Origin: Escherichia coli O157:H7
GTDB taxonomy: Bacteria; Pseudomonadota; Gammaproteobacteria; Enterobacterales; Enterobacteriaceae
Direction: 5' to 3' (one strand)
NCBI RefSeq assembly: GCF_013167455.1
Contig: NZ_CP038328.1
Length of the DNA: 64,000 nucleotides
Positions 27,676-27,950 of this stretch are shown in pieces. The notes under the pieces were generated by a model. The model was not told the origin of the DNA, searched no databases, and saw only the letters and a program-made list of their open reading frames with translations. The translations under genes were made by a program, and so were the position numbers. Position 1 is the stretch's first letter. Each line of letters opens with the position of its first letter.

Positions 27676-27950
27676 ATGAATAAAGCAATAAATTGATGTC
27701 GCACGCGCCGATGGGCATGGCGGGTAATGTGACTTTTGTACACAACGGCAAGGCTTATGTTACTGGCGGTGTTAACCAGAACATCTTCAATGGCTATTTT
27801 GAAGATCTCAACGAGGCTGGAAAAGATTCAGCAGCTATAGACAAGATCAATGCCCATTATTTCGACAAAAAAGCAGAAGATTATTTCTTCAATAAGTTTT
27901 TGTTGTCTTTTGATCCCTCAACACAGCAATGGATCTTCACTTGCAGGCTT
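27676..27950 (+). pseudogene. nanM: Relic of nanM (yjhT, N-acetylneuraminate epimerase): start codon plus internal fragment, internally deleted and 3-prime truncated
   Basis: ATGAATAAAGCAATAAAT then stop (MNKAIN*); the overlapping track ORF 27693-28019 reads MSHAPMGMAGNVTFVHNGKAYVTGGVNQNIFNGYFEDLNEAGKDS...FDPSTQQW, matching the K-12 NanM middle region as I recall it, then diverges. Confidence 0.6.

Follow-up and report, generated by a model that had tools for sequence, protein, structure and literature searches.

A decayed nanM copy at the right-hand border of the OI-172 defence block in Escherichia coli O157:H7, a probable remnant of a direct duplication

The analyzed DNA is a 64,000-nt stretch of the E. 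coli O157:H7 contig NZ_CP038328.1 (hereafter, the window), which covers the leuX island (O-island 172, OI-172) and, across the 40 kb that were compared, shares 99.9% identity with strain PV15-279. Its left part is occupied by a block of defence genes. The ARMADA II/DISARM-like genes are located on the minus strand at 1..13883, with PADLOC matches to DrmD and DrmMI/type IIG, and comprise armC, which is incomplete at the window start, the methyltransferase gene armB (6088-11022), and armA (11025-13883). They are followed on the same strand by the Druantia III genes druE (14107-20430) and druH (20421-23780; PADLOC DruE3 and DruH3, E = 0 for both), and then on the plus strand by zorA2 (23992-25644; PADLOC ZorA2, 1e-302), zorB2 (25651-26358; ZorB2, 2e-104), and zorE (26362..27465; ZorE2, 4e-176), the latter also annotated in RefSeq and encoding the Zorya type II HNH effector. 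The three zor genes form one operon of Zorya type II. The name ARMADA II on OI-172 comes from a preprint (bioRxiv 10.1101/2025.09.22.677730), the main text of which describes an OI-172 defence island whose nine genes and gene order agree with those found here, and reports their co-occurrence in 426 genomes, including O157:H7, O145:H28, O55:H7, and ATCC 8739. None of the terms nanM, sialic acid, pseudogene, or tRNA turned up when that main text was searched; thus, the nanM relic described below and the 2.2-kb duplication that flanks the block add detail on the borders and history of the island. A literature search on a nanM pseudogene in O157 returned no relevant paper.

The right part of the window contains the tRNA gene that gives the island its name, leuX for tRNA-Leu(CAA), identified by ARAGORN on the minus strand at 40415..40499. 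An exact 26-nt copy of the leuX 3' end, representing an old att site, is found at 30344..30369, where none is expected by chance, and adjoins a truncated tyrosine-recombinase pseudogene (29317-30222). The outer copy of this direct repeat lies in leuX (40414-40439) alongside an intact integrase gene (38393-40366). The pairing of 26-nt repeats with integrase genes indicates that the segment 30370-40413 (~10 kb) is a younger tandem element and that the older defence island has been moved away from leuX by it. An IS1203/IS629 copy near the leuX-proximal integrase (36902-38399) is inverted relative to PV15-279 (locus coordinates 29485-30978), and the pepA-holC intergenic region further right (47470-47768) contains imperfect tandem copies of ~96-100 nt that are ~91-93% identical, as detected by self-offset BLAST matches.

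To the right of zorE, the remains of nanM are preserved as two collinear pieces on the plus strand. The 5' piece (27656..27691) begins at the final nucleotide of the nanC stop codon and extends across the 19-nt nanC-nanM spacer into nanM as far as nt 16; it is identical to K-12 at 34 of 36 positions (K-12 locus coordinates 11628-11663), and in strains S43, 2D, and XPF_3 the same sequence runs on into a full-length or longer nanM. The nanM start codon is at 27676, and the reading frame encodes MNKAIN and ends at a stop after codon 6. The internal piece (27689..27933) is a pseudogene fragment that corresponds to nanM nt 354-598, with 95.1% identity to K-12 nanM by blastn and 93.5% identity (16 of 245 positions different) to the resident nanM of O157 PV15-279. 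A tblastn search with K-12 NanM aligned residues 119-201 at 95% identity (E 1.9e-55), and the Pfam family NANM (PF24996) matched profile positions 101-178 of 350 with 79.5 bits (cut-off 45). Judged by these scores, the resemblance to nanM is far beyond chance, and a pseudogene for a partial N-acetylneuraminate epimerase is annotated at this position in RefSeq. The first-pass annotation of this DNA had recognized the fragment as nanM, which these matches confirm, and had described it as a start codon plus an internal fragment of ~90 codons; the ATG is indeed retained, and the internal piece is ~82 codons long. The span of 27676-27950 given there needs correction at both ends, as the relic begins 20 nt earlier and positions 27934-27950 are native DNA upstream of the following gene.

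Altogether, 261 of the 1107 nt of nanM are left; as nt 17-353 and nt 599-1107 are missing from the DNA itself, no intact nanM can be restored by frameshift correction. The relic has a significant match to the family profile and encodes neither a complete ~368-aa ORF with an N-terminal signal sequence nor a full Kelch propeller. With a reading frame that ends after codon 6 and a 337-bp deletion that shifts the frame, it is a NanM-derived pseudogene rather than a functional family member. Mutarotase activity on sialic acid is not to be expected from a fragment of ~82 codons that has no in-frame start codon. The relic resembles the K-12 gene (nanM, also yjhT) in its 95% identity at both the DNA and protein level over nt 354-598, in the nanC-nanM spacer with the first 16 nt, and in its orientation relative to the remnant of the downstream restriction gene; unlike the K-12 gene, it lacks the signal peptide, most Kelch blades, and an adjoining nanC or nanS. 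The nanC-nanM-nanS operon context is likewise missing, with zorE and a spacer upstream of the relic and a restriction gene downstream.

Alignment with intact nanC-nanM-nanS, which the first-pass annotation had suggested as a check, mapped the breakpoints at nanM nt 16/354 and nt 598. At the first junction (27689..27691), 337 bp (nanM nt 17-353) have been lost across a TAA microhomology: the two relic matches overlap by these 3 nt, which is a signature of microhomology deletion, and the breakpoint sequences were compared with S43. This junction was found in 468 of 5,426 complete genomes, a set that is strongly weighted to O157:H7, as are the other counts taken from it. At the second junction (27933..27934), 2,276 bp have been lost with a 1-nt overlap, removing nanM from nt 599 to its end, nanS, a ythB-like ORF, and a minus-strand HNH gene (S43 coordinates 20975-23250); 355 genomes carry it. 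Thus, the earlier description of the site as a recombination scar is supported in the sense of a recombination or deletion scar with both junctions mapped. It is not an att-site scar, as the only extra leuX repeat in the window is the one at 30344-30369 and no tRNA 3'-end repeat occurs at the relic.

The relic does not abut zorE, as had been stated; the zorE stop codon at 27465 is followed by a 190-nt spacer (27466..27655) with a 10-bp inverted repeat at 27477-27500 and no Rfam match. The spacer was seen exclusively in the zorE-nanM junction context, in 539 of the 5,426 complete genomes and in Escherichia sp. E1V33. We consider this number consistent with the 426 genomes counted in the preprint. 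Among the structural classes of the locus described below, the spacer has diverged by 7-11%, compared with 1-5% for the adjoining zorE 3' end, which indicates that the zorE-nanM junction is old. A possible origin of the spacer as a diverged nanC 3' end was ruled out, since tblastn with NanC against 27401-28010 gave nothing below E 0.2 and blastn homology begins only at 27656. Strain 1008S13 was of no use as a guide to the Zorya boundary, because ISKpn26 is inserted there 25 nt after zorE.

On its other side, the relic is followed by 72 nt of DNA (27934..28005, plus strand) that are collinear with the DNA downstream of nanS in K-12 and S43 and natively precede the adjoining gene; the window segment 27933-28149 is 97.2% identical to S43 23250-23466, the K-12 match being weaker. 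The HNH gene reported earlier as the immediate neighbor of the relic is indeed a phosphorothioate (PT)-dependent HNH endonuclease gene, which starts only beyond this upstream region. It occupies 28006..28857 on the plus strand, encodes 283 aa with an HNH_2 domain (Pfam 3.7e-10; PADLOC HNH and mREase_IV), and has the RefSeq product name phosphorothioated-DNA-binding restriction endonuclease; we refer to it as the PT-restriction gene. A 335-aa ORF at 27850-28857 was rejected as a fusion protein because it is the PT-restriction frame extended upstream, the start at 28006 being common to strains with different upstream DNA.

This arrangement raises the possibility that the relic was co-opted as a promoter or 5' leader of the PT-restriction gene, as a terminator or read-through control for zorE, or as a small peptide. 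With 72 nt of its native upstream region left, transcription of the PT-restriction gene may need to cross the relic, and the relic is identical in 310 O157 genomes. However, this identity reflects the clonality of O157, and the region 27300-28200 contains no Rfam match at E <= 1, no terminator, and promoter-like sites only at the frequency found in shuffled sequence. Moreover, the PT-restriction gene has different upstream content in other structural classes, copies of the relic at pheU, pheV, and on a plasmid stand without the PT-restriction gene, and the O145 relic has gathered five non-synonymous changes. We therefore regard co-option as improbable.

The first-pass annotation had also proposed that sialic acid genes were replaced here by defence genes. 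Taken in full, this would mean that nanC, nanS, and the 5' portion of nanM were overwritten and that the sialic acid operon was lost. The relic does have defence genes on its flanks, and the same block does stand in place of gntP-fim-nanC in the class I strains described below. However, strain PV15-279 carries intact nanC, an intact nanM of 1107 bp, and an uninterrupted 326-aa nanS adjoining fimB, and the same three genes are annotated at the same place in EDL933. In these near-identical O157:H7 genomes, the resident nanC-nanM-nanS genes lie just past the ARMADA II end of the block, 5-9 kb to the left of the point where the window starts; O145 strain RM9872 and strain 2D are arranged likewise. 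Genes of nanM that span the internal region were found in 5,041 of the 5,426 genomes, and the relic differs from the resident allele at the 16 of 245 positions noted above. Overwriting in place is thus very improbable for O157:H7, and the persistence of intact nanC-nanM-nanS, together with the allelic difference, indicates that the relic is a redundant second, partial copy. As a whole, the earlier interpretation is partly supported. In PV15-279, extra IS copies (IS1203, ISEc8, and an IS4 remnant) are present between armD and the resident nanS, and EDL933 lacks them. The nanS gene is labelled by RefSeq/PGAP as an incomplete sialate O-acetylesterase in K-12 (12819-13385), O157 (19299-19865), and S43 (21548-22162; locus coordinates throughout); its ORF is an unbroken 326 aa in O157 and S43, and the K-12 sequence also reaches a stop codon, so the label looks like an artefact of the annotation model and the gene is probably not a pseudogene.

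Comparison with genomes that do not have the block clarifies how the two copies are related. The common E. coli arrangement reads nanC-nanM-nanS-ythB-like ORF-HNH gene (minus strand)-PT-restriction gene, and K-12 conserves it apart from deletion of the HNH gene and truncation of the PT-restriction gene. As the first-pass annotation had stated, the K-12 nanM is situated within nanC-nanM-nanS; the operon is found between fim and this HNH/PT-restriction remnant, in a region that we take to be part of the leuX island, although the K-12 locus that was read stops short of leuX. In O157, O145, and 2D, the order is fim-nanC-D, 1.2 kb with a transposase-domain pseudogene, armDCBA-druEH-zorABE, the 190-nt spacer, D', and the PT-restriction gene, followed further right by leuX. 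Here, D is a segment of 2,227 bp (S43 coordinates 20357-22583) that contains the last base of the nanC stop codon, nanM, nanS, the ythB-like ORF, and ~48 nt of the HNH gene 3' end, and its limits are the same in O157 and O145. The left copy, D, is intact and continuous with nanC, and the right copy, D', is continuous with the HNH/PT-restriction region; hence a segment of host DNA is present at both ends of the 38-kb block, each copy with its native outer flank, as in a direct duplication. In O157, D' has lost 337 bp and 2,276 bp through the two microhomology deletions. A synthetic query, in which the missing nanM-nanS sequence was restored between the O157 flanks, recovered the intermediate configurations that had been predicted and retrieved no genome with both copies of D intact among its top matches.

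The survey of other strains for intermediate configurations, as had been suggested, distinguished three structural classes of the zorE-linked nanM. Class I includes S43, MB06022, TW14425, and GF4-3 (n = 4 by the nanM-side search and n = 10 by a left-flank marker) and has the order zorE-spacer-intact nanM-nanS-ythB-like ORF-HNH gene-PT-restriction gene, which is the sole place in the genome where nanM was matched. In S43 (NZ_CP010237.1), the block adjoins uxuA, and gntP, the whole fim operon for type 1 fimbriae, and nanC are absent; the left junction is a 603-bp sequence on the uxuA side that occurs in ten genomes, including MB06022, TW14425, and GF4-3. True replacement, with the block standing in place of gntP-fim-nanC, was seen only in these ~10 class I strains. 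Class II (represented by 2D and XPF_3; 93 genomes) retains nanM nt 1-497 and has a deletion into the nanS 3' end. Class III, the O157 type, has the 337-bp deletion (468 genomes) and the 2,276-bp deletion (355 genomes), the latter starting at nanM nt 599 and ending 72 nt before the PT-restriction gene. The deletions of classes II and III are not nested and hence arose independently from a longer copy, and classes I and II represent the less-decayed states. In addition, Escherichia sp. E1V33 (NZ_RHJI01000003.1, unclassified) has zorE, the spacer, and an uninterrupted nanM with 92.6% identity to S43 over the 1.3 kb retrieved; thus, the junction crosses species lines. The left flank of the block is 603 bp in class I and 1,192 bp in O157, O145, and 2D, and because of this difference class I could be a separate derivative and not the precursor.

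Class III relics have also spread to other chromosomal sites and to a plasmid. At pheU, pheV, and on the plasmid, the relic is followed by ISKpn26 at the same insertion site (between the positions equivalent to 27951 and 27952). In strain KCTC 2571 (NZ_CP147025.1, ~416-450 kb), the whole block, the relic, ISKpn26, and a 198-nt ORF are located in the pheU island between cadC and pheU, bracketed by two IS1 elements that encode the same transposase protein, and this unit resembles a composite transposon of ~34 kb. In the pheV island of S30 and AB104, zorE is truncated by IS1, and its 3' part, the relic, and ISKpn26 lie between IS1 copies. Plasmid pEC00-3_94k has a full copy of the block with the relic. 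The fact that the relic accompanies the block to these sites indicates that it is retained by linkage and not by a need for it beside the PT-restriction gene.

The substitution pattern of the relic gives further insight into its origin. Class III copies from O157, O145, S30, KCTC 2571, and a plasmid were compared with five intact alleles, and nine substitutions separate all five relics from all five alleles. Seven of these shared, relic-private substitutions are synonymous and two are non-synonymous, where ~20% synonymous changes are expected under neutrality; the synonymous excess gave P = 6.5e-5 to 0.0036 in per-copy tests. Changes that arose later in single lineages are non-synonymous, as are all five of those in O145. 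This succession indicates that the cargo-linked copy was under selection as a working gene before it turned into a pseudogene, and we interpret the relic allele as having diverged under purifying selection, with drift as a pseudogene following only afterwards. Such a history fits a zorE-linked nanM-nanS pair that was once functional, as it is in class I. The S43 nanM is K-12-like (98.5%) and, with 16 of 245 positions different from the relic, is no nearer to it than other alleles. No intact allele nearer to the relic than ~97% was found among the 5,041 genomes, and an exact relic-specific 26-mer was absent from 100,044 species-representative genomes.

These data also bear on the idea that the relic was copied recently from the O157 resident nanM, by local duplication or gene conversion within the O157 lineage. 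One genome does contain two nanM-derived sequences in direct orientation ~30-36 kb apart. However, the relic is just 93.5% identical to the resident copy, the nine private substitutions are common to the class III copies of O157, O145, S30, KCTC 2571, and the plasmid, and 539 genomes of many lineages, as well as another Escherichia species, carry the zorE-spacer-nanM junction, with a spacer that is 7-11% divergent among classes and hence old. We consider a recent intragenomic copy the least credible origin, with hardly any chance of being correct.

Thus, we propose that the relic is very likely a non-functional pseudogene, namely what decay has left of the right-hand repeat in a 2.2-kb direct duplication on either side of the OI-172 block. 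According to this scenario, the block would at first have been located directly upstream of a working nanM-nanS pair, as in class I (S43 type) and E1V33, and would then have entered a genome with normal fim-nanCMS. Two alternative routes of entry are proposed, both of which would duplicate D: recombination with homology at just one end and illegitimate joining at the opposite end, or integration of a D-containing circular fragment through a single crossover. Homology-facilitated illegitimate recombination and Campbell-type single crossover are general mechanisms that give direct duplications of the anchor sequence. As here, they leave the insert bracketed by a directly duplicated anchor with one arbitrarily placed end, which in this case is located ~48 nt inside the HNH gene; whereas those mechanisms are known as such, the event in O157:H7 is inferred from its end product only, neither a circular intermediate nor a double-intact genome having been observed. 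An IS-mediated circle was considered and rejected, since the 1,192-bp left flank has no similarity to the DNA right of the PT-restriction gene. After the duplication, one of the two nanM-nanS pairs would be redundant and would have been eroded by microhomology deletions, independently in each lineage, leaving a relic that presumably has no function of its own and is kept by its linkage to the defence block. In this respect, it is comparable to the remnants at island borders, such as truncated integrases and tRNA 3'-end repeats of tandem islands, which are also fossils of earlier junctions kept by linkage; unlike them, the nanM relic is neither an att site nor a product of an integrase. A shorter right-hand repeat might also lessen loop-out of the 38-kb block by recombination between the repeats.

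More tentatively, with the balance of probability somewhat against it, the relic may serve as a lineage barcode, which would cover also the IS1-bracketed pheU copy of KCTC 2571, the truncated pheV copies, and a plasmid copy. Under the barcode reading, the ancestral cargo-linked nanM-nanS would have been the sole working copy of the cell, and a later merger with a fim-nanCMS genome would have been followed by loss of either duplicate.

The relic is already annotated and of a familiar kind, and its reconstruction is ordinary island archaeology; the known functions of Zorya, Druantia, and nanM are unchanged by it, and its practical value is small. It nevertheless defines where the OI-172 defence block ends on the right and provides a provenance tag, in that a 280-nt marker with two diagnostic deletion junctions traces the block among leuX, pheU, and pheV islands and plasmids. 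The gain of the block in O157:H7 was not at the cost of sialic acid use. Finally, the cargo-linked copy is intact only where fim-nanC is absent and decayed where nanCMS is present, and this reciprocal pattern is an example of how redundant copies that arise from island insertion are resolved.
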